Shown here: piece after piece, positions 18,053-51,541 of the stretch
How the letters are laid out: the number at the start of each line of letters is the position of its first letter
Numbering within the stretch: position 1 is the first letter of the stretch
Translations under genes and position numbers: made by a program
From: Cenarchaeum sp.
GTDB taxonomy: Archaea; Thermoproteota; Nitrososphaeria; Nitrososphaerales; Nitrosopumilaceae
Length of the DNA: 64,000 nucleotides
Direction of reading: 5' to 3'
NCBI GenBank assembly: GCA_965242695.1
Contig: CBDESU010000002.1
Coordinates: 960,001 to 1,024,000 of the forward strand
The notes under the pieces: model-generated
Told to the model about the DNA's origin: nothing
The model's input: the letters and a program-made list of their open reading frames with translations, nothing else
Database searches by the model: none

Positions 18053-18772
18053 TCAGCAAAAATTCTGCACGGCCAGGACGCTTTCGTCGTCCCCTATGGC
18101 CACCCCTACCCCGAGCGAGTTGTGGTACGGGTTGAGTATGTTCTGGCGGTGGCCAGGACTTGTAAGCCACATGTCCATGAGGTCAGCGGCCATCCCGTCC
18201 TCGCCGTCCAGCCAGTTGTACTTGGGCAGCCACCACAGGCTCACCACCGACGAGTACGTATAGCTGCTGGCTATGTTCTCTGCTATGCCGTATGATCCGT
18301 CGCTCCTGTGGCAGGCGTGGCCGGCGGCAAGCCCGCGACCCATCGGGGTGATCCCCTCCGGGTTGTCGTGCGAATAGTATCCCCTTGCCTGCATGTCCAT
18401 CGCATGGGAGTACGCCAGGGCGTCGACTCCGGGATCCCTCGCTACGTAGCCCAGGCCGTAGGCGGCCCTCACTGCGTTGACCCGGTCGTGGATGTGGTCC
18501 TCGACCGCCTCCCTGTCGAACCCCGACGACATCCTGCCTATGTCGTCGGCGCCGCCCGACGCAACGATGGATGCGACAACCACAATGGCGGTGAGCGCGA
18601 CGCCGAGCCCGATAAAATACAGGAACCTCACCAGTATCGAGCGGCCGAGCGACGCAAGCGATGCGCCAATTCTGCGCCTGCGCTTGCGGCCCCGCCTGCG
18701 CCTGCGCCTGCGGCCGCACTCGGGGCACCCTCTGCCAAACCACCCGCGTCCGCCGCATCTTCGGCACCGCAC
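18053..18772 (-). CDS. CAP/SCP domain membrane protein
   Basis: VN..R...GL, AYSHAMDM...YYSH, AENIA, W..SPGHRQNIL, GVGV, QNFC; N-terminal CxxC...CxxC, Arg run, TM; TTATA upstream. Confidence 0.9.
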   Translation of the reverse strand: MRCRRCGGRGWFGRGCPECGRRRRRRRGRKRRRRIGASLASLGRSILVRFLYFIGLGVALTAIVVVASIVASGGADDIGRMSSGFDREAVEDHIHDRVNAVRAAYGLGYVARDPGVDALAYSHAMDMQARGYYSHDNPEGITPMGRGLAAGHACHRSDGSYGIAENIASSYTYSSVVSLWWLPKYNWLDGEDGMAADLMDMWLTSPGHRQNILNPYHNSLGVGVAIGDDESVLAVQNFC

Positions 18773-19016
18773 ATGCGACCAACGCGGGCTGCCCCTATAA
18801 CCGCATGCCGGAACGGCCGGCACTAGCAGGGTGCGGGGCGGCATGGCGGGCTGCCGCCCCCGCAGGCGCTTCACGCTGCCTGCGCTTGCCGCCCCCCCGC
18901 AAGCGCATTCCGTCACTGCGGAGCGGCGAGTCCCGGCTGGGCGCCTCATGCCCTAAGTGGTCGTTATTATTACGCCCCCTCGCGGCATCCTTGTGGGCTG
19001 CCGCCACTATTACCGG

Positions 19017-20657
19017 ATGACGGTCAGCGGAATGCTGGTCTGCGAAAAGTGCGGAAAGAGCAAGGGCAGACGCCCCCGCCGCGGGCGGTGGGGGACGAGA
19101 CGCAGGCGGAGGAGAAAGGGCGCTAGGATGCGCGGGGGCGCAATAGCCGGCGCCTTGGTTGTGGCAGCTGTCGTCGGGATATTGGTCATGCCAGGCAGCC
19201 TAGAGATCTTTGAGGATCTGATTTCCTCTGGCGATCCGCTCGAGTCGTTGCGCGGCGACCCGCACCCGAGCTCCGAGACCCCTCCCGATTCGGGAGACGA
19301 TGCGCCGCCTCGCGCGCCCGACGGATCGTCCGGCGATCCCCGGAGCGCAATAGACCTCTTGTCGGACACAGTCTGGCCTGCCTCGCCCCTTGACTCCGAC
19401 TGGAACATGTCGTCGTCGCCGGGATCATTCGAGGTGCAGCTAGCAAGGTTCAAGGGGCAAGGTGGTAGGCCAGATGTGCTCAAGCGGGTGCTGATCCTCG
19501 ACTCCCCCACGGAGCTGTCGTTCAGCTTTGGCGATCAGAGCCGCACACACAGCCACTTTCTACTGGACACGTGGTACGAGAATCGAGGGCTGGCAGAGCT
19601 TGACAAGCGCGATACGGCCCAGGGCTTCGGAGGCACGTCACTAGCGGCCAACACGTCCCGCCCCCAGCATTTGGCAGACGGCAAAATTTGGCACACGCGT
19701 GCCGACGTACCGCCCCGGGATTCGGATCTAGTCGAGTCGCTGGTGGAAGCAGCCTACGACAGGTCCGCCTCCCTGGACCGCCTATACAACGTAGCGCTTG
19801 ATGCCATAAACGACCACAGGACGGCGATGGGTCGAGAGCCGGTGCAGCTTAGCGACAACACCGCGGCCCAGATGCACGCGCAGGATGTACTAGAGCAGCT
19901 GGCCATATCGCACTACATGTCCAACGGCGAAAAGCCGTACATGACGTACAGTATGACCGGCGGCGCCGGGTACGTAGCGCAGAACGTGGCGTTCGGCGGC
20001 TACGACCGGCCATGGCAGTGCGGCGGCTACGTCATATGCACAAAGATCGATCCGGCTACCGACATACTCGCGCACCACAACGGGATGATGTTCGACGACG
20101 CCCACGCCGACTGGGGGCACCGCGACAACATACTGGATCCCTACCACACGCACGTGAGCCTGGGGGTGGCCTACACCGACTACACGCTCGTCTTCGTACA
20201 GAACTTTGAGACCCGCCGCATCGAGGGCGTCGGCCCCACTGGTGGCCCCGCCAACCCCGTATCGCTGGACGGCGCGGGGCGGATCACGGTAGCCGGCAGT
20301 ATGGATGCGGGGCTAGGCGTGCACTCCATTGACGTGTACTATGATCCGCTGCCGTCGACTAGGACGTACAGAATGCATGCGAACGACATGTCGTACGGCC
20401 TTGGAGATCCCATAGCGTACGTCTACGAGCCACACCCATACGGGTACATCTCAATGGGCAAAACCATCATCATGGCGGATCGCTGGAATACGTCTGGAGG
20501 CACGGTTCTTATCGAGTTCGACGCGCCCGCAGGCATGTCAAAGAACGGAGCCTATACGTTCTACGTCTGGCTGACGGATGGCATACGCCCCCCATTCACG
20601 GGAACCTCAAAGACCTTCTTGGTGGGCGATCCAGCTGGTTTCAGAACACCGTGGTAG
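19017..20657 (+). CDS. CAP/SCP domain membrane protein with additional domains
   Basis: IN.HR...G, AQMHAQD, ISHY, AQNVA, WGHRDNILDPYHTHVSLGVA, QNFE; N-terminal CEKCG, Arg run, TM. Confidence 0.88.
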   Translation: MTVSGMLVCEKCGKSKGRRPRRGRWGTRRRRRRKGARMRGGAIAGALVVAAVVGILVMPGSLEIFEDLISSGDPLESLRGDPHPSSETPPDSGDDAPPRAPDGSSGDPRSAIDLLSDTVWPASPLDSDWNMSSSPGSFEVQLARFKGQGGRPDVLKRVLILDSPTELSFSFGDQSRTHSHFLLDTWYENRGLAELDKRDTAQGFGGTSLAANTSRPQHLADGKIWHTRADVPPRDSDLVESLVEAAYDRSASLDRLYNVALDAINDHRTAMGREPVQLSDNTAAQMHAQDVLEQLAISHYMSNGEKPYMTYSMTGGAGYVAQNVAFGGYDRPWQCGGYVICTKIDPATDILAHHNGMMFDDAHADWGHRDNILDPYHTHVSLGVAYTDYTLVFVQNFETRRIEGVGPTGGPANPVSLDGAGRITVAGSMDAGLGVHSIDVYYDPLPSTRTYRMHANDMSYGLGDPIAYVYEPHPYGYISMGKTIIMADRWNTSGGTVLIEFDAPAGMSKNGAYTFYVWLTDGIRPPFTGTSKTFLVGDPAGFRTPW

Positions 20658-20921: not shown

Positions 20922-22233
20922 AAGATTTGACTTATTTTACCCAAACTATTTGACGCGGTCAGGGTCTGCAAACAGTGGGATGTATTTTTTGGGCGACTTC
21001 GGTACCGGTTGATCGCCGTATTTGCGGATTATATAATTCAACGCTCCTTCTTTACCATGTCGATTTTTTCTTCGCTTTATGTTTCGCCTGTATGCATACG
21101 GACTTCTCAATAGATATTTCCAAAGGTTGAGGCGAGGGTTTAACATAGTGTTAAGGTATCTTAGTGTCTTCCGCCTCTTTTTTGTAATACTTGAAAAATA
21201 TTCATCATAGAACTCGGCAAGCTTGGTTTGGCGCCAATTTGCCTCCTGTAGACTCAAGTATGACGACCCCGGTGGAAGATAAAATATGATTATCATGTTT
21301 TCCATCTTGTCAATGAAATCCTTTAGTTTCTTGGACTTGTGCCATCCTGCGTTGTCAGAGATCACCACGATTGGGCCGAATTCTTCGACCGCTTTTTTCA
21401 AAAGCTTGATGACACCATCAGTGTTGGCTGCGTCGTACATAACGTTGCAATGCCGAGCAACGCCATTTTTGTCGGGCTCGGTGGTCAGTCCCAGTGCGAC
21501 ACACTTGGAACCCTCTCCAATGTAGGGCACCTTGACGGCCTCGCCCGGGGGCGACCAGTAGATCAGCTTGCCGTTCGCGTCTTGGTATACTATCATCTCG
21601 TCCTCGATCACCACTAGATAACCCTCTTTTTTGAGCGCCAAAATCTGGGGTAGGACCACTTTGCGCCAGTAGTAGACCTCGTGCGGTTCGGGCGATCCAA
21701 CGTGTGCCTTCTCTGCCTTCTTTCCGGTCAGGCCTTCCTCGTGCAGTATGCGCAGGGCCTGCCTTTTGGACATTCTTAACTTGCACAGTTTGTACATTTC
21801 AGTGATAAGCTTGCGGGGGGTAATACGACCGCCGTTTTTCTTGATATTTTTGATCGCCTTTTTGACCAGTTTGCGATCATAAACGTGCGGTCGTCCCTGC
21901 CCGCCCTTATCGTACAGCCCGTTGACCCCCTTCAAGGTGAATCTTTTCATGTAATTTCTGACCGAACCTGTGGATACGCTTAGCTCTTCCGCGGTCATTT
22001 TGCAGGCCTTTGTTTTTTTCATTTTTGATTTTTTGATCTTTACGCGAACAGAATTAACAACTAGCATTCTTTTTAGAGCCCTTGGATCTTTCTCCACCTT
22101 GATTGCTCTTTGGAGATTTCCTAACCTCATTGCCCGCCGACGCTCAGCGGGGTCTATTATATCTAGGCCTGCGTCCAAATGCCTAGAATGAAAAATTGAG
22201 TATCAGCTTTTTAGTATAAATGATTAAAATCTA
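20922..22233 (-). mobile_element. IS630-family insertion sequence
   Basis: Low-GC segment; imperfect 24-bp terminal inverted repeats 20922-20945 and 22210-22233 (16/24 by manual alignment), right end finishing in TA. Confidence 0.75.
20946..22178 (-). CDS. IS630-family DDE transposase
   Basis: HTH with GVNGLYDK..GRP; DDE residues in VIEDE, ISDNAGWHKS, YLPPGSSYLSLQEANW. Confidence 0.9.
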   Translation of the reverse strand: MDAGLDIIDPAERRRAMRLGNLQRAIKVEKDPRALKRMLVVNSVRVKIKKSKMKKTKACKMTAEELSVSTGSVRNYMKRFTLKGVNGLYDKGGQGRPHVYDRKLVKKAIKNIKKNGGRITPRKLITEMYKLCKLRMSKRQALRILHEEGLTGKKAEKAHVGSPEPHEVYYWRKVVLPQILALKKEGYLVVIEDEMIVYQDANGKLIYWSPPGEAVKVPYIGEGSKCVALGLTTEPDKNGVARHCNVMYDAANTDGVIKLLKKAVEEFGPIVVISDNAGWHKSKKLKDFIDKMENMIIIFYLPPGSSYLSLQEANWRQTKLAEFYDEYFSSITKKRRKTLRYLNTMLNPRLNLWKYLLRSPYAYRRNIKRRKNRHGKEGALNYIIRKYGDQPVPKSPKKYIPLFADPDRVK

Positions 22234-33551: not shown

Positions 33552-33628
33552 GCGGTCATAGTATAGTATGGTTAGTATACTGGCTTTCCAAGCCAGTCAC
33601 CCGGGTTCAAATCCCGGTGACCGCACCA
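33552..33628 (+). tRNA. tRNA-Gly (TCC)
   Basis: Acceptor stem GCGGTCA/TGACCGC, anticodon arm CTGGC-TTTCCAA-GCCAG, T-loop GGTTCAAATCC, encoded CCA. Confidence 0.97.
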
Positions 33629-39859: not shown

Positions 39860-41233
39860 CTACCTCGTCACCGTCACGACGCTCTCGCGCAGCGGCATGT
39901 GGTGCCTCTGCGGGTTGCTCTTCCACTTGTCGCCGCGGGCGCGCAGCACCTCGATCTCGTACGAGGAAAAGCCGAGGTCGACGGCCAGGCGTCCGATCAG
40001 CTCGTCAGTCCTGACGTGCACTCCGTACGGCGCCGAGTCGCCGAGTACGAGGACGAACCTCCTGCCGCGGTCTAGCGTGTCGCGCACCTGCCCTACCACG
40101 GCGGCAATGTCCTCAAAGTACCCCGCCACCATCAGGTCGTACATCTTCCTGCCCGACCCGCCGGAGCGGATCGCGCCGAGCCTCCCGACTATACCGGACA
40201 GCTCGGCGTGCACCGCATTCGACACCTCCCTGACGGCCGGCATCGCGATCCTCTCCCCGTAGTCGCGCACGCGCACCTGCGTGGTCGCCGCCGTCATGAG
40301 GGCGTCGCGCACCCCCCTGGTGATCTCGCCCCAGCTCGAGTAGACGCCGAGAAAGAACGTCTCTAGGCGCGTCCTGTCCGCGTAGTCGTAGTTGTTCAGG
40401 TACGGCGGCGACGTGACGACCAGGTCTATGCGGTCCGGGCCGGCGTGCCGCGCAAACTGCCTTGCGTCGCCGTTGACGATCCTGTGGCTGGTGCGCCGGC
40501 CCGCCCGCGCCCCTCCGGCGTGGTCGTCGAGCGTGCGGGCGCCGGGCTCCGCCGCCCCTCCCGCGCCGCACCACGCCTCGAACTCGCGCAGGTCGCCGAG
40601 CATCATATTGCACTGCGCCCCGAACGCGTCGAGCGCGTCGCGCTCGGCCGCCTTTGATCCGCGCTTCGAGGGCGCTATGTACGGCCATCCCGTGCCGGCC
40701 TTGGCGGCGCGGCGCAGGGTCGCAACGAGTGCGAGCTTTAGGAAGTCGCGCGTGTGGCCGTCGCCGACCGCGCCTACGCGCTCGCGCAGCAGGTACAGCA
40801 GGCGCAGGTTTGCCGGCCCGTAGCACTTGTAGATCAGCTCGGGCCAGACGCCGCCGACGTCCAGGCCGGCGGCCGCCCCCCTTGCGCCGTCCACTACGCG
40901 GTTGTACTCGCGCCGTATGTCCGACTCGTCGTACCCGTCGTACACCTTTGTGCTTGCGACCCACCACACGAGCGGGTGCGCCTCTGTGCCGACCGAGTCG
41001 ATCCCGTACTGCCTGGCGGCCAGGCTCGTCGTGCCGGATCCTACGAACGGGTCGGCGACCACCGCGGGCGAGCCGGCCTCCAGCCCCGCGTCGCGAATCT
41101 TCGACTCGACGAGCCGGTAAGAGTAGCCGGCGGGGTACTCGAACCACCTGTGGACGGGGGCCGCCCTGCCGTCCTTGAACGACCCGTAGTCCTCCTGCAC
41201 GGCGCCGGCGCGCCGCCGCGGATATTTCCGCAT
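39860..41233 (-). CDS. DNA amino-methyltransferase, probably N4-cytosine
   Basis: H.WF.YPAGYS, motif I DPFVGSGTT, motif IV VTSPPYLNNYDY. Confidence 0.88.
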   Translation of the reverse strand: MRKYPRRRAGAVQEDYGSFKDGRAAPVHRWFEYPAGYSYRLVESKIRDAGLEAGSPAVVADPFVGSGTTSLAARQYGIDSVGTEAHPLVWWVASTKVYDGYDESDIRREYNRVVDGARGAAAGLDVGGVWPELIYKCYGPANLRLLYLLRERVGAVGDGHTRDFLKLALVATLRRAAKAGTGWPYIAPSKRGSKAAERDALDAFGAQCNMMLGDLREFEAWCGAGGAAEPGARTLDDHAGGARAGRRTSHRIVNGDARQFARHAGPDRIDLVVTSPPYLNNYDYADRTRLETFFLGVYSSWGEITRGVRDALMTAATTQVRVRDYGERIAMPAVREVSNAVHAELSGIVGRLGAIRSGGSGRKMYDLMVAGYFEDIAAVVGQVRDTLDRGRRFVLVLGDSAPYGVHVRTDELIGRLAVDLGFSSYEIEVLRARGDKWKSNPQRHHMPLRESVVTVTR

Positions 41234-41312
41234 TGCGGGGAGGCGCCGGCGCGCCGCCTCCAACGCCCAGAGGCCGCCGCGCCAATATACGGGCTGTTCC
41301 GGCCCCGCCGGC

Positions 41313-42287
41313 ATGGTCGGCAGCGGCGGCGCGGCTCTTCGCCGCCGCGGCGGGGCCGCACGGCGCCGGCGCACGGCTCCCGGCGGGCAGCGGCACGAGG
41401 CGGCCCGGCCGTTCACCGCCGTTCCGCAGGTCATGCCGTACCAGGGCAGCAAGCGGAGGATTGCCGGGGAGATACTGCGCCACTTTCCGGCCGGGACTGG
41501 GCGCGTGGTCGAGCCGTTTGCCGGCTCGGCCGCCGTGTCGGCGCATGCTGTCGCCAACCTGGGGGCGGAAAGGGTGTGGCTCAACGACGCGCACAGGCCG
41601 CTCATGTGGCTGTGGGGAGAGATTATTCGGAACCCGTCCGGGCTTGCGGCCGGATACGAGCGGCTCTGGCGGCCGAGCCCAGTTCGGGGGGATGCCGACT
41701 ACTATGCGGCGCGCGACCGGTTCAACGAGACGCACGACCCTGCTGACTTTCTGTACGTCCTAGCGCGCTGCGTAAAGGCCGCCGTCCGGTACAACGCCGG
41801 CGGCATGTTCAACAACTCCCCGGACAAGAGGCGGCGCGGCGCGCGGCCGGCCGAGATGAGGCGGAGGATATTCGCCGTCAGCGGCGTGCTTGGCGGCCGG
41901 GCGAGGCTTACGTCGTGGGGGTACGGGAGGGTCCTGCGCGGGTGCACGCCGGACGATATAGTCTACATGGATCCCCCGTACCAGGGCACGCAGGACGCGC
42001 GGGACAGGAGGTACTGGGGGCGGTTCTCGCACGACGAGTTCTGCGGCGAGATGGAGGATCTCAACCGCAGGCGGATCCCGTTCATCCTGTCGTACGACGG
42101 CCGGCTGGGCCGCCGCGCGTACGGCAGGGCCCTGCCGGGGTCGCTGGGCCTGCGCCGCATCGTGATACGGGCGGGGCGCTCGGCGCAGTCCACGCTGCTC
42201 GGGCGCGCAGACGACACGTACGAGTCGCTGTACCTGTCGCCGCACGTGGCGCGGCCGCGCGCCCGGCGCGCCGCGGACGACTTTTAA
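41313..42287 (+). CDS. Dam-like DNA adenine methyltransferase (D12 class)
   Basis: PYQGSKRR.A, EPFAGS, LND, RYN..G.FN, YMDPPY. Confidence 0.9.
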   Translation: MVGSGGAALRRRGGAARRRRTAPGGQRHEAARPFTAVPQVMPYQGSKRRIAGEILRHFPAGTGRVVEPFAGSAAVSAHAVANLGAERVWLNDAHRPLMWLWGEIIRNPSGLAAGYERLWRPSPVRGDADYYAARDRFNETHDPADFLYVLARCVKAAVRYNAGGMFNNSPDKRRRGARPAEMRRRIFAVSGVLGGRARLTSWGYGRVLRGCTPDDIVYMDPPYQGTQDARDRRYWGRFSHDEFCGEMEDLNRRRIPFILSYDGRLGRRAYGRALPGSLGLRRIVIRAGRSAQSTLLGRADDTYESLYLSPHVARPRARRAADDF

Positions 42288-42972: not shown

Positions 42973-43659
42973 ATGGAGGGGATCGGCGCGGCCGTCGACT
43001 CGCTCAGGCGCGGCGAGTTCGTCCTGGTCCACGACTCGGCCGGCCGCGAGAACGAGGTCGACATGGTCGTGGCAGCCGACGCGGCGACCCCCGAGCACAT
43101 CGCCCGGATGCGCCAGCATGCGGGCGGGCTGATCTGCCTGGCCGTCGGCGCGCGGTTCGGGCGGAGCCTCGGCCTGAGGTACATGCACGACATGCTCGCC
43201 GAGTCGCTCGACGGCGAGGCCAGGGCGATGGTGCAGGGGCTGGCCCCGTACGGCGACCACCCGACGTTCTCGATCTCGGTCAACCACTACCAGACGTTTA
43301 CCGGCGTGACGGACCGCGACAGGGCCCTTACGGTGAGGGAGCTCGCCGCCCTGCACGCGCTGCCCGAGCCCCGCCGCCGGTTCGCCTCGTCCTTCAAGGC
43401 GCCCGGCCACGTGCCGCTGCTGCTCGCGTCCGAGGGGATGCTCGCGCGCAGGCGCGGCCACACGGAGATGTCGGCGTACCTGGCAGAGGCCGCCGGCATG
43501 CCGCCGGCGGCGGCCATATGCGAGATGATGGACGCGCAGACGTACGCGGCAATGTCCGTCGAGAGGGCCGCCGAGTACGCCCGGCACAACGGCATCCCGC
43601 TAGTCGACGGCGCCGAGATCGTCAGGGCCGCGGCGGCCTCGAGGGTGCGCCGGCCATGA
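42973..43659 (+). CDS. ribB: 3,4-dihydroxy-2-butanone 4-phosphate synthase
   Basis: D..RENE.D, GGLIC, TGVTD.DR..T, F..PGHV, R.GHTE, ICEM. Confidence 0.95.
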   Translation: MEGIGAAVDSLRRGEFVLVHDSAGRENEVDMVVAADAATPEHIARMRQHAGGLICLAVGARFGRSLGLRYMHDMLAESLDGEARAMVQGLAPYGDHPTFSISVNHYQTFTGVTDRDRALTVRELAALHALPEPRRRFASSFKAPGHVPLLLASEGMLARRRGHTEMSAYLAEAAGMPPAAAICEMMDAQTYAAMSVERAAEYARHNGIPLVDGAEIVRAAAASRVRRP

Positions 43660-44069
43660 ACGTCGCGTTCGTCGTGTCCCGGTTCAACGGCGAGATCACG
43701 TCGCGCATGCTAGCGGTCGCCAGGGAAAAGGCCGCCGCCATGGGCCTGTCGGTAGCGCAGGTGCGGACCGTCCCCGGCGCGTACGACATGCCCGTTGTGG
43801 TCGACGCGCTGCTCGGCCGCGGCGACGTTGATGCGGTAGTCGCGCTCGGGGCCATCATACGGGGGCAGACGCGGCACGACGAGGCGATCGCGCACGCGGC
43901 CTTTTCGGCCCTAGCCGACATATCGGTGAGGCGCGGCAAGCCGGTCGCGCTCGGGATCACGGGGCCGGGGATGCACGAGCGGCAGGCGTACGCGCGTATA
44001 CGGCCCGCGGCCGAGAGGGCCGTCGAGGCCGCGGCGGCGACGTCGGCCGAGCTGGGGAGGATCGGGTGA
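43656..44069 (+). CDS. ribH: 6,7-dimethyl-8-ribityllumazine synthase
   Basis: VVSRFN..IT..M, VPGAYD.P, DAVVALGAIIRG.T.HD, PV.LGI. Confidence 0.95.
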   Translation: MNVAFVVSRFNGEITSRMLAVAREKAAAMGLSVAQVRTVPGAYDMPVVVDALLGRGDVDAVVALGAIIRGQTRHDEAIAHAAFSALADISVRRGKPVALGITGPGMHERQAYARIRPAAERAVEAAAATSAELGRIG

Positions 44070-44890
44070 GCGGAGGGATGGGCGGCGCCTCCGCGGCGGC
44101 GCAGCCGCGCGTGCAGCTTACCATATTGAGGATATCGGGGTACGGGCCGTGGACGCTAGAGCTCGGCAGCGACAGGGAGCACCGCCTCCAGATGCTCCAG
44201 GCGTCTCTGTACCGCGACGTGCAGGAGCGCTTCTCGGCGGACGGCTGCCTTGCGTTCCACAACAGGGCCGACGAGTTCTTTGTCGTCTCCAACGGGATGG
44301 GCCTCGACGGGCACGTCCGGATACACCGCGCGCTGGAGGAGCGCACGCCCGAGGTACGGCTCGCCGCATCCGTCGGGTCGGACGCGGACCCGTTCGGGGC
44401 CAACCTGGCGGCCCACAGGGCCCGGGTGGGGGGGCGGAAGCTCTGCGGGGATCCGCTGGTGTACGGCGAGGGCATGGATGGGGACGGGGCGCCCGGGGCC
44501 GTCACCGTACTGCACATGGACGTCGAGAACCTGACGGCCGCGTCCGAGGCGGCCTCGCCGTACGAGGTGTCCGCGTCGATCGTCGCGCTGCACGGCAGGA
44601 TGGCAGAGTTCTTCGTCGCAAACAGGGCCCTGTCGTTCTTCATGGGAGGCGACAACTTCATGGTCGTGTGCGGGGCGGGGGCGGGCCCCGGCGGGAAGGA
44701 TCCGGCGGCCCTGGCGCGCGAGTTCGTCGGCGCGGCGCGCGGCGCCGGGACGGTCCTCAACTGCGGGGTCGGCACGGGCCGGACGGGGCGCGAGGCGGCG
44801 CGGCGCGCGACCGCGTCCCTTGACGGCATACGGCGGATCAGGGAGTCGGGCGGGGATCCGCCCAGGGTGTACGAGCTGCCGTGCTCCTGA
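44066..44890 (+). CDS. gch3: GTP cyclohydrolase III
   Basis: I.GYGPWT..LG.DREH.LQ.LQA.LY, FMGGDNF, GVG.G. Confidence 0.92.
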   Translation: MSGGMGGASAAAQPRVQLTILRISGYGPWTLELGSDREHRLQMLQASLYRDVQERFSADGCLAFHNRADEFFVVSNGMGLDGHVRIHRALEERTPEVRLAASVGSDADPFGANLAAHRARVGGRKLCGDPLVYGEGMDGDGAPGAVTVLHMDVENLTAASEAASPYEVSASIVALHGRMAEFFVANRALSFFMGGDNFMVVCGAGAGPGGKDPAALAREFVGAARGAGTVLNCGVGTGRTGREAARRATASLDGIRRIRESGGDPPRVYELPCS

Positions 44891-46197
44891 GGAACGCGTG
44901 CGCCCTGGTCGGGCCGCGCCTGTCGCTTGCCCCGCGGGCAGACATCGGCGAGTCGGGAGGCGCGTTCGACCGCGTCGTGCTGCGGGGGGCGCGCCCGAGG
45001 CCGCGCCGCGGCGAGGCCGTATACGACTGCGAGGGGCTGCTTGCGGTGCCGGCCCTTGTCAACGCGCACACGCACGTGGGCGACTCGATAGCAAAGGATG
45101 CGGCGCCGGGCCGGACGGTCGACGAGAGGGTGCATCCGGTGCTCGGCGCAAAGCCGAGGATACTGGCCCGGAGCAGGCCGGACCACCTAGAGTCGATGAT
45201 GCGTGCGGCATGCGCGTCGATGCTCGCCGGCGGGACGACGACCTTTGCCGACTTTAGGGAGGGGGGCGTCGAGGGGGCCGCCATGCTGGCCCGGGCCGCC
45301 TCGGGCCTGCCGGTGAGGGCAGTCATACTCGGCCGTCTCGAGGCGTACGGGGATGCGGGGGGAGTGGCGGCGGCCGCGGCCGCGGAACGGCGGAGGACGG
45401 GGCGGCGCCCGACAGGGCCCGCGAATTCTGTTCGCGGCCCGGCGCACGGCGTCACCGCGGCCGGGATTGCGCGCCTGCTGTCCCGCTGCGACGGCATCGG
45501 GCTTAGCGGGCCCAACGAAAACTCGGATGCGGCGCTCGGGGCGTACGCCCGCGCCGTGCGGCGCCCGCGCCTGAGGGCGATCCACGCGGCCGAGACGGCG
45601 GCGAGCTCGGCCGCATCGAGGCGGCGCACGGGGCGCACCGAGGCGGAAAGGGCCCTGCTGCTCCACCCGCACATCCTCGTGCACATGACGCACGCGACGG
45701 ACACCGACTTGCGGGCGGCCGCCCGCGCAGGCGCGTCCATCGTTGTGTGCCCACGCTCGAACGCGGCCCTCGGCGCGGGCCTGCCGGACGTCCCGCGCAT
45801 GCTCGCCGCCGGGTGCCGCGTCGCGCTCGGCACCGACAACGTAATGGTCAACGCGCCGGACATGTTCCGCGAGATGGACTACCTGGGCAGGGCCACCGAG
45901 GCGGCGCAGGTGGGGCGGGGCGGCGGCCGGAGGCGCGGCCGCGGCACCCCGCCCGGGGCGCAGCCGCTAGATGCCAGGGCGATCCTCCGCATGGCCACGG
46001 TGGACGGCGGCGCGGCCCTGCGCCGGAAGGTCGGGGCGATCGCGCGCGGGATGGCCGCCGACTGCATGCTCATCGAGAGGCACTCGGTCGACCTAGAGCC
46101 GATGCACGACCCGTGGGCCGCCGTCGTCCACCGGGCGTCCGCATCGTCGGTTCGGGCAGTCGTCTCGGGCGGGAGAATAGTCCATGGCCGCATCTAG
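44881..46197 (+). CDS. Metal-dependent amidohydrolase, deaminase-type
   Basis: NAHTHVGD, IHAAE, VHMTH, CPRSN, LGTDN; overlaps both neighbouring riboflavin genes. Confidence 0.88.
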   Translation: MLLRNACALVGPRLSLAPRADIGESGGAFDRVVLRGARPRPRRGEAVYDCEGLLAVPALVNAHTHVGDSIAKDAAPGRTVDERVHPVLGAKPRILARSRPDHLESMMRAACASMLAGGTTTFADFREGGVEGAAMLARAASGLPVRAVILGRLEAYGDAGGVAAAAAAERRRTGRRPTGPANSVRGPAHGVTAAGIARLLSRCDGIGLSGPNENSDAALGAYARAVRRPRLRAIHAAETAASSAASRRRTGRTEAERALLLHPHILVHMTHATDTDLRAAARAGASIVVCPRSNAALGAGLPDVPRMLAAGCRVALGTDNVMVNAPDMFREMDYLGRATEAAQVGRGGGRRRGRGTPPGAQPLDARAILRMATVDGGAALRRKVGAIARGMAADCMLIERHSVDLEPMHDPWAAVVHRASASSVRAVVSGGRIVHGRI

Positions 46198-46894
46198 GCC
46201 GCGCGTGATCCTCAGCGCGGCGTCAAGCATCGACGGGCGCATAGCCGCCTCGCCGCGCGACTCGCGGCTGTCGTCGCCGGCGGATGTGCGCCGCGTCCAC
46301 CGCCTGCGCGCCGCGTGCGATGCAATCATAGTCGGCCGCCGGACCGTCGATGCCGACGACCCGATGCTCACGGCGCGGCCCCTGCGGGGGGCGCCCGGCG
46401 GCAGGAGGGGGGGAAAGGCGCGGCAGCCGCTGCGCGTCGTCGTCAGCGCGCGCGCCGCCGTGCCGCCGGGCTCGCGGCTGGTCAGCACGGCAGCCGCCGT
46501 GCCGACGCTCGTCGCGTGCAGCAGGGCCGCGCCGCGCCGCGCAGTGGAGGCGCTCGAGAAGAGATCCGTCAAGGTCTTTGTATCGGGGGCCCGGTCGGTC
46601 GACCTGCGCGCCCTGCTGGGCCACCTGCGCGGCCTGGGCGCAAGGACCGTCCTGCTGGAGGGCGGAGGCGAGACGAACTGGCGGTTCGTCAGGCTCGGGC
46701 TGGTCGACGAGATCCGCCTGGCCGTCGCGCCGGTCGTCATCGGCGGGGGCGCTGCCGGCGGCCCGGGCCGGTCCGTTCCGCTCGTCGGCGGCGCCGGCTT
46801 TTCCACTGTGGCGGCCTCGGCCCGGTTCCGCCTGGCATCGGCCCGCCGGCTTGCCGGCGGCGAAGAGGTCGTCCTGACATATGTACGGCGCTAG
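46184..46894 (+). CDS. RibD C-terminal-type pyrimidine reductase (archaeal ArfC/Rib7-like)
   Basis: RP.V....A.SIDG.IA, H.LRA..DAI.VG..TV..DDP.LT.R, LEGGG..N..F...LVDE. Confidence 0.92.
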   Translation: MAASRPRVILSAASSIDGRIAASPRDSRLSSPADVRRVHRLRAACDAIIVGRRTVDADDPMLTARPLRGAPGGRRGGKARQPLRVVVSARAAVPPGSRLVSTAAAVPTLVACSRAAPRRAVEALEKRSVKVFVSGARSVDLRALLGHLRGLGARTVLLEGGGETNWRFVRLGLVDEIRLAVAPVVIGGGAAGGPGRSVPLVGGAGFSTVAASARFRLASARRLAGGEEVVLTYVRR

Positions 46895-46953
46895 GCTCCC
46901 GCGCCGGAGGCGTATGCGGTCGCCGGAGCGGCCCAATGTTGCCTCTGGCCGGA

Positions 46954-47925
46954 TCATGCGTGCAGCAGGCAGCATACCGACTCTGCGTCCTTTAGGACGC
47001 CGCCTACCCTGTGCGTTGCGGAAAAGTGGAGGTCACCGTTGCCTTGCCGCGCCTCGCTTACAGCGACAAGATCGTCGTGCACCAAGCCAAACGATGCGCC
47101 GGGGGCGAACATGACGCTGCGGGGCGGCGCGGGCTGCCCTGCTCCGCTGTCGGGATCCCGCGGGGGAAGGGACGGGCGCGAGACGAGCAGGATTCCGTCG
47201 TATTCGCGCATGCAGTCATCCGTCGCCCCGCGCGCGGCTCGGTTCCACTCGGCGAACTTTGGATCCGCCGACAGGTCCAGCAGCGCCTTCGCGGTGGTGC
47301 AGCAAACGAGGCGATTGGCGTAGATGCCGCATTCCGCAATTTTATCCTTGGCGGCATCGAGCCCCCTGCATGTCAGGGCGGAGGCTGCCGGCGGGTGCTG
47401 CGCACCCTTTGCCTCCAAGCCGGTAGCGCCGTCGATTTGCGGCGGCGCTTGCCGGGCGTCTGCGGCGCCGGCCCCTTCCGAACCGTTGCCGCCGCGGGCG
47501 AGGCGAAGTAGCATCTCTGTCTCGTCCTCAAGCGACCGCTGTAGGTAGGCATAGACCACGCTGTCGCGGAGGTCGGGGTCGTCCCTCGGCGCATCCCTTA
47601 CGACAATGCCGGGAAGGTTCCGCGGCCCGGCTGGCGCGCGCCTGACTGTGCAGGTGACCTGCTCTGCGCGGCCCCCACCGCCGGCAGTATCGGTGAAGCA
47701 AAGCCCGTCAAACGAGCAGAATGCCGCGCTGTTCTCGCCCTCCTCTAGGGACTTGGCCTCGCTGAACTGCCGTATCGGGACCACTGCGGTGCGGCAGCCT
47801 AGGGCCAGCCCGAACGCGTTGGTAACTGGAGCGCTTACGACCTCGAGGCCGTTCCACTCCCTCTTTACCATGTCTATTCCGTGTTTGAGGTACGCGGATT
47901 TTATGTACTGCGCGGGGTCGGACAT
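46954..47925 (-). CDS. Divergent HK97-fold major capsid-like protein, stand-alone
   Basis: 323 aa; PIRQF.E.K.L..G...A.F..F, L.AAK..I...G.....LVC.TT.KA..DL..DP, RSVMF.PG.SFGLV..DL...E........H..ATHR.GGV.K..E.VC pattern recalled from thaumarchaeal virus capsids; TATATA box at about 47955-47960. Confidence 0.55.
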   Translation of the reverse strand: MSDPAQYIKSAYLKHGIDMVKREWNGLEVVSAPVTNAFGLALGCRTAVVPIRQFSEAKSLEEGENSAAFCSFDGLCFTDTAGGGGRAEQVTCTVRRAPAGPRNLPGIVVRDAPRDDPDLRDSVVYAYLQRSLEDETEMLLRLARGGNGSEGAGAADARQAPPQIDGATGLEAKGAQHPPAASALTCRGLDAAKDKIAECGIYANRLVCCTTAKALLDLSADPKFAEWNRAARGATDDCMREYDGILLVSRPSLPPRDPDSGAGQPAPPRSVMFAPGASFGLVHDDLVAVSEARQGNGDLHFSATHRVGGVLKDAESVCCLLHA

Positions 47926-48316
47926 GGCAACCACAGGCCGCGCGTTGCCGCTTGTATATACCCGTTGCGCGTCAAGAGGCTGTGCGTGCCAAGCCGGCAT
48001 ACAGGCTTGACTCTTCCGTTGCCCGTCGTAGTCACGCCGAAAAGTTTTTGGAATGCATGCCCCGCGTGCAGGGCGTTCGACGTCCGATTCTGGGGTTAAT
48101 CGTGCACCTCTGCGGCCATCGCCGGCTTGGCATTGCAGACTTCGGCGTGACCGTGGCCCGGGATCTTCCCCGGCCTTCAGTGGGGGCGAGCAGGCCCCTA
48201 GTTCGGACGTTGTTCCGACATCCTTGCAGTACGCGGCTAGGCGGCACGATCTCAAAGGCCTCCGCCCCGTTGATCTGCACATGCATCGCGCAATATGGCC
48301 AATGACGGAGATGGGC

Positions 48317-48634
48317 CTACTCGCTTATCATGACCTCAAGCTTGGCTACGCCGGCCGGCTTGGGGCCCCTTGTGCGAACCTTCTTGATGGCCTCCTCGAA
48401 GTCGTCAAGGTTCTCTTCCATGACCAAGGCCCTGCCGGTGACGCAGAACGGGTTGAGGTCGGGATCGACGAGGCAGTTGCGCACGCTCATGATACCTGGG
48501 TAGGCGTTGAACACGGCGTCGCGCACCGGCCCGCAGTCCGTGTGATCCTTCCTTGTGCACCGAACTACAAAGTACACGTTCTTGAGCGGGTAGTCCTTTG
48601 TGCCGGGCCGCACAACGCTTGTCTGTCTTGCCAT
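48317..48634 (-). CDS. Small hypothetical protein (possible ferredoxin-like fold)
   Basis: Genome-typical codon usage; TTATTAT about 25 nt upstream; 4 Cys. Confidence 0.55.
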   Translation of the reverse strand: MARQTSVVRPGTKDYPLKNVYFVVRCTRKDHTDCGPVRDAVFNAYPGIMSVRNCLVDPDLNPFCVTGRALVMEENLDDFEEAIKKVRTRGPKPAGVAKLEVMISE

Positions 48635-49116
48635 GGGACGCCCGATTTGGTACACCATAATAACCCCTGCATTTATGGGCGAACTGCGACGCCTGCCTGC
48701 CTTGCCATGGGCGCCTGGGTTGCCTGACGGCGTGCACGGTATGTGGTTGCCTCCCTTGCCGCCGATGCAGCGATCGCAGGAGGTGAAGCGGAGGGCGCCT
48801 GCGGCTCCTCTCGCAGCCCGCCCTTGCAGGGGCGCCCCAGCACCGAGCCGCTCCCGCTTTGATGCCCACGCTGGTACGGCCAAGGCAGCGCACGCCGCCC
48901 GTGCGGGCGCCCTGCCGATTCTGCCTCCTTTGGCATGTCCGTCGCCCGGCGCGCACGGCGGCATGCCTTGGCCTGCGCCGCCCCGGCCGCCGGCAGGCCC
49001 GATCTATTCGTCCCCGCGAACCGCGCCCATTCTACTATCCGCGCCCGGCCGCAAAACGCCGGCACGCCGCCCTCTTCCCGCTCACAGTGATATACCGCCC
49101 CCGCCCAGCCCGCGCC

Positions 49117-49743
49117 GTGTCCGCGGCCGCCTCTCCTTCCCCATCCCCGACCGCATCGCTGCGCCGCGACCACGACCTTATTGAAAAGGTCGTCCGCGCA
49201 ATGGGGGCGGCCGCCTCGCTGCTGCGCCGCGGCGCCGACGTGCCGGCCCCCGTCATCGAACAGGTCGTCGACTTTACGAGCAACTTTACGGACGCGTGCC
49301 ACCACGGCAAGGAGGAGGATGCGCTGTTCCCGGCGCTCGAGCGCGCCGGCATGCCGTCCCGCATGGGCCCAATCGCGGTAATGCTCGCCGAGCACGAAAA
49401 GTCCCGCGAGATCGCCGGACGGATGGCCGCTGCCGCCGAGTCGTACGGGAGAAACGGGTCGGGCCGCGAGGACCTCGCATCCGCCATGGAAGAGTACGCG
49501 TCGCACATTACCGAGCACATTTGGAAGGAGAACAACCGGCTCTTCATGATGGCCGACGCGCGCCTCGCCCCGTCGGCCGGCCGGGTCGCCGCCGACCTCG
49601 ACTCCACAGAGGAGGAGCGGCTCGGCCGCGCCGGCGCCGGCAGGGCCCACTACGAGAGGATCGCCGGCGAGCTGTCCCGGAGCATGGCAGGGGAGGCGGA
49701 CAAGGGGGGCCGCGCCGGCCCGTCCGTCGAGTGGGAGGCCTAG
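49117..49743 (+). CDS. Hemerythrin/HHE cation-binding protein
   Basis: L..DH..I, HHGKEE..LFPAL, GPI..ML.EH, EHI.KEN..LF. Confidence 0.92.
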   Translation: MSAAASPSPSPTASLRRDHDLIEKVVRAMGAAASLLRRGADVPAPVIEQVVDFTSNFTDACHHGKEEDALFPALERAGMPSRMGPIAVMLAEHEKSREIAGRMAAAAESYGRNGSGREDLASAMEEYASHITEHIWKENNRLFMMADARLAPSAGRVAADLDSTEEERLGRAGAGRAHYERIAGELSRSMAGEADKGGRAGPSVEWEA

Positions 49744-49756
49744 GGAGGGGGCAGGC

Positions 49757-50272
49757 CTAGGCGTACTGCTGCATGTCCTTTTCGATCTGGGCGATCTTTC
49801 GGGCGAACGCGTTGCGCGCCCTGTCGTTCTTCTTGAGGTTGAGGACCTTGCCGCACGTGCCGCACCTAAAGTCGTCCTCTAGCGACTTTTCGAACGTGAC
49901 GCGCTGGCAGTCGCCGTTGCCGCAGTGGTAAAAGTCCGAGCCGGCCTCGTACTCGTAGCGCTGCCTGAGGCGCTCGCCTATCTTGTGCTTTTGTATCTCG
50001 ATAAAGTTCTCGACCTCGTCGCCCCTGGACCTCCACCTGTACACGAACCACCCCTTGCGCTCGTCCTTGACGCGTATGCCCGATATGAGCGACTTGCCGA
50101 ACAGGTCGTAGAGTATCTTGCGGACGCGGTTGATGCGCAGGCCCGTAGAGCTGGCGATCTCCTCGTCCGTAGAGTCCTCGGCCTTGAGGAGCGACCTGGC
50201 GACCTTGAGGTACTCTTCGCCGCCGATCATGGCCGCTATGCGCACGAACGGGTCCTCGTAGCGATCGACCAT
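49757..50272 (-). CDS. tfe: Transcription factor E (TFE alpha)
   Basis: TDEEIA..TGL.IN.VRK.LY.L, GW..Y.W, FY.C...C...TFE.....F.C..CG..L. Confidence 0.95.
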   Translation of the reverse strand: MVDRYEDPFVRIAAMIGGEEYLKVARSLLKAEDSTDEEIASSTGLRINRVRKILYDLFGKSLISGIRVKDERKGWFVYRWRSRGDEVENFIEIQKHKIGERLRQRYEYEAGSDFYHCGNGDCQRVTFEKSLEDDFRCGTCGKVLNLKKNDRARNAFARKIAQIEKDMQQYA

Positions 50273-50644
50273 GCGCGGGCGCCGGCATCGGCCCGTTATT
50301 AACCGAGCGGGCAGGGGCGCCGCCTGCCCCGGTCCGCGCCGCCTGCGCGCCGCGCCAGGGGCGGCCTCCGCGCCTCCGCGGTCCCGCGGCCTCCACGGGG
50401 CAGCCCGCCCCGCCTCCGCCCGGCCCATCCTGTCTGCCTCCTCCCCCCTCGATGCCCCCCCTCGGCGCGGGGACGGACGGGCGGCCCTGCGCCCTGCGGC
50501 GGACGAGGGGCCCGGGAGCGCCCCCGCCTTGGCGCCGGGACGGACGAGCGGCCCCCGCTCCCCGGCCCCGCCTCCATCCCGCAGGCGCCGCAGGCGCCCC
50601 CGGGGATACGGCAGTGGCCCGATCGCTACAGTTAAGTCATAGCC

Positions 50645-51475
50645 ATGTCGGGCTCGGCCGTGGCTAGGCGGTACAAGCCGAAGATAAAGCAGGTGCTGCG
50701 GGAGGTTCCCCTCAAGCAGATCGTCGTCTGGAAGGAGGCGCAGGCGCGCCGGCTGGACCGCTCGCGGATCAGGGACCTGGCAAAGTCCATACGTAGCGAG
50801 GGCCTCCAGAACCCGCCCCTGATCCAGAGGAGCGGCAGGGGCGAGTACAAGCTCATATCCGGCCACCACCGCCTCTCGGCCCTGCGCTCGCTCGGCGCCA
50901 AGAGCGCAAAGTGCCTCGTCCTGACCAAGGACACGGCGTACGACCTGGAGGACGCAAAGGCCGCATCCGTCGTCGAGAACCTCCACCGCCACCAGATGAA
51001 CACGTCCGAGCTGGCCAACGCATGCGTCTTTCTTGCAGATCAGGTCGGCAAGGGGGCCGCCGCCCGCAAGCTCGGCATGTCGGCGCCGACGTTCCGCAAG
51101 TACCACGGATTCGCCGGGGTGCCGCAGCGCATAAAGGACCTGGTCCCGTCAAAGCTGTCGCGCGACGAGGCCACGCGCCTGTACCAGGCCGTGCCGGGCG
51201 TCGCAAAGGCCCTAAAGGTCGTCGACAACATCTCGCGGCTAGAGCCGCGCGCCCGCAGGGCGTACATCCGCATCCTGGCGTCAAAGCCGACCGCCAGCCA
51301 CAGGGAGGTGCTGGCCAGGGTGCGCAAGATCGGCGGCCCCAAGAAGAGGATCGTCATCGAGCTAGGAAGGAACAACGCGGCAAAGCTCGACCGCCTCGCC
51401 AAGCGGCGCAACACCGGCGTCGACAAGCTTGCCGACGACATCCTGCTCGGCTACCTCCGCAAGTACGGGCGCTGA
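50645..51475 (+). CDS. ParB/Srx N-terminal domain protein with HTH and C-terminal RHH-like segment
   Basis: LA.SI...GLQNP..I, Y.LISGHHRL.A...LG, VVENLHR..M. Confidence 0.88.
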   Translation: MSGSAVARRYKPKIKQVLREVPLKQIVVWKEAQARRLDRSRIRDLAKSIRSEGLQNPPLIQRSGRGEYKLISGHHRLSALRSLGAKSAKCLVLTKDTAYDLEDAKAASVVENLHRHQMNTSELANACVFLADQVGKGAAARKLGMSAPTFRKYHGFAGVPQRIKDLVPSKLSRDEATRLYQAVPGVAKALKVVDNISRLEPRARRAYIRILASKPTASHREVLARVRKIGGPKKRIVIELGRNNAAKLDRLAKRRNTGVDKLADDILLGYLRKYGR

Positions 51476-51541
51476 GGCGCCGCCTGCGCGCCGCCCGGGG
51501 CGGCGCGGTAGCAATATATCGAACCGCCCCGTGCGCCGCGC

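Follow-up and report, generated by a model that had tools for sequence, protein, structure and literature searches.

We analyzed a 64,000-nt stretch of the genome of Cenarchaeum sp. (assembly GCA_965242695.1, contig CBDESU010000002.1, forward-strand positions 960,001 to 1,024,000; hereafter the window, numbered from its first nucleotide), in which a 323-amino-acid (aa) open reading frame (ORF), P0001, encodes a capsid protein whose gene stands alone among cellular genes. The gene lies in a segment that interrupts host DNA between a riboflavin cluster and a hemerythrin-domain gene, and the features of the locus are as follows.

46954–47925, minus strand: stand-alone HK97-fold capsid-protein gene P0001, 323 aa, with its stop codon at 46954–46956 (from translation, AlphaFold2 (AF2) model, and homologs)
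47955–47960, minus strand: TATATA box, probable archaeal promoter, ending 29 nt upstream of the ATG
46905–49078: insertion of 2,174 bp relative to the closest relative genome, comprising the capsid gene, a 390-nt spacer, and a small ORF
48317–48634, minus strand: small ORF of unknown family, 105 aa, inside the insertion and upstream of the capsid gene
46184–46894, plus strand: RibD C-terminal domain (RibD_C) gene, last of the riboflavin cluster and left host flank (Pfam PF01872, E = 3.5e-43)
49079–49743, plus strand: right host flank, promoter region and hemerythrin-domain gene (PF01814, E = 3.7e-17), with homology to the closest relative resuming at 49079

The original prediction, made from the DNA of the window, described an intact 323-aa ORF with its own TATA box, lying convergent to the riboflavin genes, and each of these points holds. 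The P0001 frame is intact over 323 codons, all five motifs quoted in that prediction are present in its translation, and the gene converges on the RibD_C gene across a gap of 59 nt. A longer open frame, extending to 48282, also exists; we rejected it because (i) the orthologs share the Met start of P0001, (ii) the extension has a GC content at third codon positions (GC3) of 0.57 versus 0.77 in the gene, with a non-coding distribution of GC over codon positions, and (iii) the TATATA box falls inside the extension. The hexamer TATATA occurs 229 times in this 3.89-Mb, 67%-GC genome (G000), a count from which its chance expectation in a given 16-nt stretch is ∼1e-3, and each of the three genomic copies of the gene that were examined (the window copy, a paralog, and a copy in the closest relative, G004) has it 23–29 nt ahead of the ATG. 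The box thus has the appearance of a genuine archaeal promoter, from which a leaderless mRNA, or one with a short leader, would be made.

HK97 fold, viral relatives, and a separate short-form clade

The AF2 model of P0001, built from a 34-row alignment, has a pLDDT of 85.4 and a pTM of 0.86, and clearly identifies P0001 as an HK97-fold capsid protein, with the complete predicted fold including the N-arm, the E-loop, the spine helix of the P-domain (27 residues, at 117–143), and the A-domain; the loop at 144–185 is of low confidence. In a Foldseek search of the PDB, the model matched 368 chains at E ≤ 1e-3, and among the matches listed all are phage, gene transfer agent (GTA), or encapsulin shells, while a search of BFVD returned 266 models at E ≤ 1e-3, the named ones being viral capsid or structural proteins. 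VIA-align Z scores were highest for phage LME-1 (16.9), followed by the archaeal virus HFTV1 (15.8), GTA (15.7), and a capsid-forming phage-inducible island (cf-PICI, 15.4), with the phage HRP29 capsid also within the range 16.9–15.4 and HK97 itself (1ohg) at 13.8; the scores for encapsulins were ∼13 (family 2: 6x8m, 13.0, and 9bje, 12.9), below those of the phage capsids. The structural matches span residues 2–323, and a protein language-model atlas likewise groups P0001 with viral capsid clusters. The HK97-like capsid that had been proposed is thereby borne out by structure prediction and search, with a Z score of up to 16.9, and not by any direct sequence-family match: the P0001 sequence has no Pfam, PHROG, or PDB match at E ≤ 10, and a PDB profile search with its family alignment gave only a chance match (E = 2.1).

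An exhaustive phmmer search of 1.84 billion representatives retrieved 29 relatives of P0001. The nearest nine full-length relatives are short (272–381 aa), whereas most of the remaining ones have 557–1027 aa, with the match confined to their C-terminal 280 residues. A PHROG annotated as 'major head protein' (phrog_267, phrog_544, or phrog_283) was matched by 12 of the 28 relatives scanned, and one relative matches PF19821 (Phage_capsid_2) just under the cut-off, so that the link between P0001 and curated capsid families is only transitive, running through these relatives. The long forms sit in viral surroundings. In G253, a large terminase (phrog_2, 1.4e-22) and an ORF of portal size precede a 576-aa form; a 772-aa form in G169 follows a terminase fragment and a 511-aa ORF; and a 755-aa form in G029 lies between a weak portal match and gp10-like, tail-tube, and tape-measure genes. 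The distant relatives of P0001 are major head proteins within thaumarchaeal proviruses, in agreement with the resemblance to capsids of thaumarchaeal head-tail viruses that the original prediction had drawn from motifs.

In four other genomes of the class (G029, G253, G344, and G169), we observed head-tailed provirus or virus-like modules with head proteins of 576–772 aa; the G029 element has no terminase within the 19 kb read. The N-terminal 250–450 aa of the long head proteins match no Pfam family and no protease domain at E ≤ 5; for the thaumarchaeal provirus Nvie-Pro1, a fusion of protease and major capsid protein (MCP) is described in the text of PMC6563490. The family of long viral head proteins is large, with 234 proteins at E ≤ 1e-10 in a profile search, mostly of 550–660 aa, and P0025, a long-type query, retrieves six IMG/VR contigs of 18–98 kb. 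With its annotated length of 317 aa, P0025 was also a candidate for a short viral capsid; we did not count it as one because, in the tree, the IMG/VR region that it matches is almost the same as the 914-aa P0021, and P0025 is probably a long form whose call was cut short.

In an IQ-TREE phylogeny of 39 rows, all 16 short forms fall into one clade (SH-aLRT 100) on a stem of 1.21 substitutions per site, which separates them from all 23 viral-type rows. The tree comes from a quick search, was midpoint-rooted for drawing only, and has its long rows trimmed to their last 330 residues; P0014, P0030, P0033, and P0037, each either a fragment or a spurious giant protein, were left out. The short clade consists of a group around P0001 (five rows), one around the paralog P0008 (three), one with the G004 copy (four), a fourth group (three), and P0016 alone. 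Its members have ∼310–340 aa, they are without the 250–700-aa N-terminal part of the viral proteins, and their residues 1–40 are unmatched by the long forms.

The short forms are also distinguished by their cysteine and histidine content. P0001 contains 11 Cys (3.4%, relative to 1.0% in the 838 long high-GC3 ORFs of G000 that serve as a proxy for the proteome), in line with the many Cys residues remarked on earlier. Across the clade, there are 7–13 Cys (2.2–4.2%) and 5–11 His per protein, compared with 0–3 Cys and 0–6 His in the capsid domains of 12 long forms, which amounts to a ∼3-fold enrichment in both. Since the codons of Cys and His are not GC-rich, this enrichment does not stem from codon composition. 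Among the individual positions, Cys208 is present in 15/15 short rows versus 2/19 others, and His305 in 15/15 versus 1/19, with the viral rows containing Gln at this position. Cys318 (15/15 versus 12/19) and His322 (15/15 versus 14/19) are invariant in the short rows as well, and are older residues. Further, Cys44 occurs in 12/15 short rows versus 0/17 others, and Cys186 in 11/15 versus 0/19. The separate short-form clade and its clade-specific Cys and His residues go beyond the original prediction, as do the second copy and the insertion boundaries described below.

Insertion, selection, and genomic surroundings

The capsid gene has been maintained in a manner that argues for purifying selection, as judged by sequence comparison of its copies. 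The two copies in G000 have identities of 0.68, 0.73, and 0.49 at the first, second, and third codon positions, respectively, and all nine gap columns of their alignment are in frame. When neutral substitution was simulated to the same divergence (36.5%), only 0.35% of 2000 replicates stayed open, with a mean of 5.5 stops. The NG86 estimates for this paralog pair within G000 are a dN of 0.35 and a dS of 1.29, the latter being saturated, and the resulting dN/dS (omega) is 0.27. Moreover, 8/8 close homologs (52–66% identity) are full-length, with 122 invariant columns, and seven more distant short homologs are also intact and of similar length.

The second copy, P0008, was located by tblastn at C2:178179–179147 of G000, 830 kb from the window copy, and is 53% identical to P0001. 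The two loci share only the gene and ∼50 nt upstream of it. The paralog lies in a 9.7-kb island (G000:C2:176698–186428) that separates an epimerase gene from cbiD; in G004, G002, and G003, these two genes are direct neighbors. This island contains (i) an AbiV/PD-T7-4-like 330-aa ORF that converges on the capsid gene, with weak matches of 2e-4 and 4e-5; (ii) an IS66 element and a DDE_3 insertion sequence (IS); and (iii) a DarG C-terminal-like 193-aa ORF (3e-11) and an HD/dGTPase-like ORF (5.5e-4). The IS66 element has at least 13 copies of ∼74% identity in G004, and the DarG-like and HD ORFs, split by the DDE_3 IS in G000, are adjacent in G004 (C2:1660215–1662142). The single capsid copy of G004 belongs to a more distantly related subclade; its location, not syntenic with either of the G000 sites, is next to a DDE_3 transposase and ∼8 kb from a PDC-M30A match (2e-47). 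IS elements are thus found beside two of the three capsid copies.

In G004, which is of the same genus and the closest relative of G000, the end of the RibD_C gene and the hemerythrin promoter abut directly, which identifies 46905–49078 as an insertion; the flanks are 84–88% identical to G004 over the whole region and 80–83% in local alignment. G001 also lacks this segment. The GC content of the insertion (0.62–0.66) is lower than that of its flanks (0.70–0.76). No terminal inverted repeats, target duplication, integrase, or replication gene were found for it, an Rfam scan of 46500–49400 gave no matches, and the nearest tRNA gene is at 33552, 13 kb off, leaving no tRNA integration site near the insertion. 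The small 105-aa ORF that shares the insertion is preceded by a TTATTAT-like motif and belongs to a family present in 5/41 related genomes. We considered it as a possible capsid cargo and found this unsupported: its paralog in G000 (C2:1122962–1123270, 62% identical) adjoins a HAD-type phosphatase, lying directly upstream of it, and its relatives elsewhere are not near capsid genes. Elsewhere on the same contig, C2:1113000–1117000 has a GC content of 36–43% in the 67%-GC genome and is probably foreign DNA.

Strains from at least three further studies also have the insertion at this site. A 30.8-kb contig of another study spans 43000–51500 with 138 differences, a further run covers the capsid gene at ∼1.5% differences (50 in 3,235 nt), and, in a strain that is ∼91% identical (run X11), a contig extends from the amidohydrolase gene via RibD_C into the capsid gene through the same junction; cover of this strain is little or none over 47828–48963 and is uninformative there. 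Within its capsid gene, the window segment 47229–47488 (codons ∼146–233, including the loop at 144–185) is replaced, with 258 nt giving way to 261 nt and the frame kept. The replacement cannot be aligned at 85% and represents a hypervariable segment.

The solitary status of the gene, which the original prediction had read from the window, extends to the whole genome. Terminase, portal, protease, tail, and integrase families are absent from the 66 window ORFs scanned against Pfam (17 ORFs at E ≤ 1e-3 and 49 at E ≤ 1e-5), and we found no viral genes within ±8 kb of any of the three capsid copies. In G000 (96% complete, two contigs), searches for the large terminase (TerL; phrog_2 and phrog_675) and the portal (PF04860) gave no matches, with the phrog_2 search recovering, as a positive control, the terminase of G253 at 3e-23, and PF04454 and PF05065 were likewise without a match. 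When the ORFs of four provirus loci were compared with G000 by tblastn, only the capsid paralog matched, plus two unrelated ORFs. Beyond the genus, the seven genomes of the class that carry the family have only long proviral forms. Four pattern scans of IMG/VR contained no short-clade member, which is weak evidence given the design of these scans, and pattern scans of genome contigs found no short-clade DNA; in scans of metagenome contigs, one query gave no loci and another gave 17, all of long-form types with ∼30% identity and none of the short clade. Full-text literature searches, supplements aside, returned no description of solitary capsid genes in Thaumarchaeota. In the article texts, again apart from supplements, the word 'capsid' does not occur in PMC9289680, nor does 'Thaumarchaeota' in PMC8346489.

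Around the insertion, the riboflavin cluster is ordered DHBP synthase, lumazine synthase, GTP cyclohydrolase III, amidohydrolase, and RibD_C, all on the plus strand, and the other side of the capsid gene holds the small ORF, the hemerythrin-domain gene, and genes for TFE-alpha, a ParB_N protein, HflX, PhoU, and NAC. Of the window ORFs scanned, one encodes a DDE transposase, 25 kb off. Closer to the capsid gene, at a distance of ∼5 kb, are two ORFs for DNA methyltransferases, at 39860–41605 (minus strand) and 41313–42287 (plus strand), one of the N6_N4_Mtase type and one of the Dam-like D12 class, with PADLOC type II methyltransferase matches of 1.8e-64 and 6.8e-69; their calls overlap at 41313–41605, so one start is probably over-extended. 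At 18053–20657 and 20946–22178, we also observed two ORFs with CAP domains (cysteine-rich secretory protein family) and a DDE_3 transposase. CAP domains are rarely seen in archaea and may be connected with the symbiotic lifestyle. The organism, a sponge-associated ammonia oxidizer, encodes an archaeal AmoA, and DNA matching its genome is present in sponge metagenomes from several studies.

A probable exapted capsid protein and its possible roles

Taken together, our analyses indicate that P0001 is probably a capsid protein of viral origin that was exapted and is retained under selection, owned by the cell as a single gene. The original prediction had offered a captured capsid kept by the cell side by side with an isolated provirus relic; the former stands, whereas the latter is made unlikely by the evidence of selection. 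As grounds for refutation, it had named homologs confined to intact proviruses, with this copy evolving neutrally; all three contexts read are without a provirus, and the dN/dS of ∼0.27 speaks for constraint.

As to what the protein does, we tentatively favor a shell with new chemistry, a mechanism that we hold to be possible while falling short of probable. In this mechanism, a capsid protein freed of the viral N-terminal (scaffold- or protease-type) part would, like encapsulins, assemble by itself to form capsomers or a small closed shell; through the Cys and His residues that it has acquired, this shell would gain new chemical properties, for instance the binding of metals or cross-links sensitive to redox state; and the shell would serve as a compartment or store without neighbor-encoded cargo. 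With the 53%-identical second copy, either a shell of its own or a mixed one could arise. A modelled P0001 complex of three copies gave scores of 0.18, 0.35, and 0.27 relative to a mark of 0.42, and is evidence for neither side.

Several observations weigh against a kept compartment. The family is present in only 2/5 genomes of the genus and 9/401 of the class (including the proviral forms), every copy is a lineage-specific insertion, and the GC3 of the capsid genes (0.77 and 0.66) is below that of the host (0.85–0.92), a patchy, inserted, low-GC3 pattern that suits accessory, conflict-type genes at least as well as a compartment. In the X11 strain, the readable capsid stretch differs at 24/129 nt, compared with 203/2352 nt in the flank; together with the kept frame, this higher divergence describes a gene that is retained but fast-evolving. 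The tree, moreover, is unrooted and so does not itself give the descent of the short clade from long viral forms. Finally, no conserved neighbor gene, as a possible cargo, is common to the three contexts read, so that a shell would have to be self-contained, and known encapsulins are partly defined by dedicated cargo according to the text of PMC8346489.

The same pattern invites an antiviral role, which we regard as a doubtful but serious possibility. Here, a host capsid protein devoid of the viral N-terminal part would co-assemble with, or cap, the head protein of infecting tailed viruses of the same family and so poison procapsid assembly in a dominant-negative manner, with the two copies targeting different viruses. 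Such a decoy would fit the homology to head proteins of viruses infecting the same archaeal class, the patchy distribution with lineage-specific insertions and two diverged copies in G000, and the faster divergence of the capsid stretch than of its flank in the related strain. The company of the gene points the same way, namely the paralog island with its IS elements and defense-like ORFs (weak to moderate matches), the PDC-M30A match ∼8 kb from the G004 copy, and the pair of genes for type II DNA methyltransferases situated ∼5 kb away from the window copy; in addition, sponge-associated Thaumarchaeota are reported to be enriched in defense genes in the text of PMC9289680. However, P0001 and P0008 match no PADLOC-DB 2.0 model at E ≤ 0.01, and the window copy sits among housekeeping genes. 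The short clade, on its long stem, has <30% identity to every known viral form, which is a poor basis for co-assembly, though the symbionts' own viruses are not known. A clade-wide gain of invariant Cys and His residues is also not what a mimic needs, and because this gain is the one derived trait of the whole clade, we lean, by a small margin, toward the shell over the decoy.

Two further explanations were considered. One holds that P0001 is the last gene of a decayed head-tailed provirus, functionless and open by chance or through recent decay. Its viral ancestry, its GC and GC3 below those of the host, the absence of the insertion from the nearest relative, and the IS elements beside two of the three copies would all suit a relic, whereas the concentration of divergence at third codon positions with a dN/dS of ∼0.27, the 0.35% of neutral replicates that stay open, and the eight close and seven more distant short homologs, all intact and of about equal length, do not. 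Because this evidence of selection is joined by a rare TATATA box at a similar distance in 3/3 copies, by invariant residues particular to the clade, and by the lack of any fragment of another virus gene in the insertions or in genome-wide searches, a functionless relic is decidedly unlikely. The other explanation is an unrecognized mobile element or satellite, either a minimal element that relies on a helper virus in the way of capsid-forming phage-inducible islands or a virus whose other genes escape recognition. That three copies occupy three unrelated sites, all as insertions, that the fold is similar to the cf-PICI capsid (Z score of 15.4), and that the insertion holds a second small ORF of unknown function are compatible with such an element. 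On the other hand, the window insertion is only 2.17 kb long and is without an integrase, a replication gene, terminal repeats, or a target duplication, with the nearest tRNA gene 13 kb away; the copies share nothing beyond the gene; and the IMG/VR scans gave no short-clade members versus six viral contigs for the long-form query. Since no recombinase, repeat, or shared flank was found and the insertion keeps its site in strains from at least three further studies, we disfavor an autonomous element or satellite and consider it very improbable.

Returning to the exapted capsid protein, a broader and more speculative proposal, which we judge unlikely as a whole, is that the short clade represents a fifth, undescribed lineage of cell-owned HK97 shells. 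The symbionts would have captured the capsid domain of their own viruses, lost its N-terminal part, and rebuilt it with conserved Cys and His sites as a shell that carries no cargo and is active toward metals or in redox chemistry, perhaps storing or buffering copper or another thiophilic metal in a copper-dependent ammonia oxidizer; the gene would now spread between symbiont genomes as a single-gene cassette. Encapsulins are the one accepted case in which prokaryotes have converted a virus shell into an organelle, and how and how often this happens is presented as an open question in the texts of PMC8987985 and PMC8346489. Here, capsid capture is visible at an early, traceable stage, because the donor virus family is recognizable by sequence, the captured clade is distinct and has derived residues, and the insertions can be dated relative to close relatives. 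If shells form, they would constitute a new compartment family in ecologically important nitrifying animal symbionts; if virus assembly is blocked instead, this would be an undescribed type of archaeal defense, as far as our literature searches show.

Comparison with known HK97-type and captured capsid systems

Encapsulins, of which four families are described in the text of PMC8346489, resemble P0001 in being encoded by a stand-alone HK97 gene in a cellular genome, without viral genes nearby, in having no scaffold part, and in their viral ancestry. Their family 1 and family 2 shells reach Z scores of ∼13 with P0001, which is nearer to the phage and archaeal-virus capsids (Z scores of 15–17). 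P0001 matches none of the family markers PF04454 (family 1), PF05065 (family 3), and PF08967 (family 4); for family 2, which lacks a Pfam model, the comparison was purely structural. Whereas encapsulins have dedicated cargo, encoded by an adjacent gene with a targeting peptide or as a fused domain, P0001 has no shared neighbor in the three contexts and no fused domain. P0001 thus fits none of the four families, and by analogy it may represent an exaptation of the encapsulin type.

The capsid genes of GTA and cf-PICI systems share with P0001 the HK97 fold (Z scores of 15.7 and 15.4, respectively) and residence in a cellular chromosome, but these systems keep portal, terminase, or other head genes, none of which is detectable in G000. 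Fv1 and enJS56A1 are reportedly captured retroviral gag/capsid genes that act as restriction factors in mammals. As with P0001, the host has in each case retained one gene derived from a capsid while the remainder of the virus has disappeared, and as such they are a possible model for a decoy, although they differ from P0001 in fold, in domain of life, and in the kind of virus.

With the MCPs of thaumarchaeal head-tailed viruses and proviruses, P0001 shares (i) homology over residues ∼40–323, with single-sequence E values of 1e-16 to 1e-5; (ii) the VVPIRQF motif and the C-terminal C...H pair (Cys318 and His322); and (iii) the HK97 fold. These viral proteins have 550–1027 aa with a long N-terminal part and are encoded beside terminase, portal, and tail genes, whereas P0001 has 323 aa and is solitary, and it belongs to a separate, Cys- and His-rich clade in which Cys208 and His305 are invariant. 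P0001 is related to the head-protein family of thaumarchaeal viruses but does not belong to it functionally.

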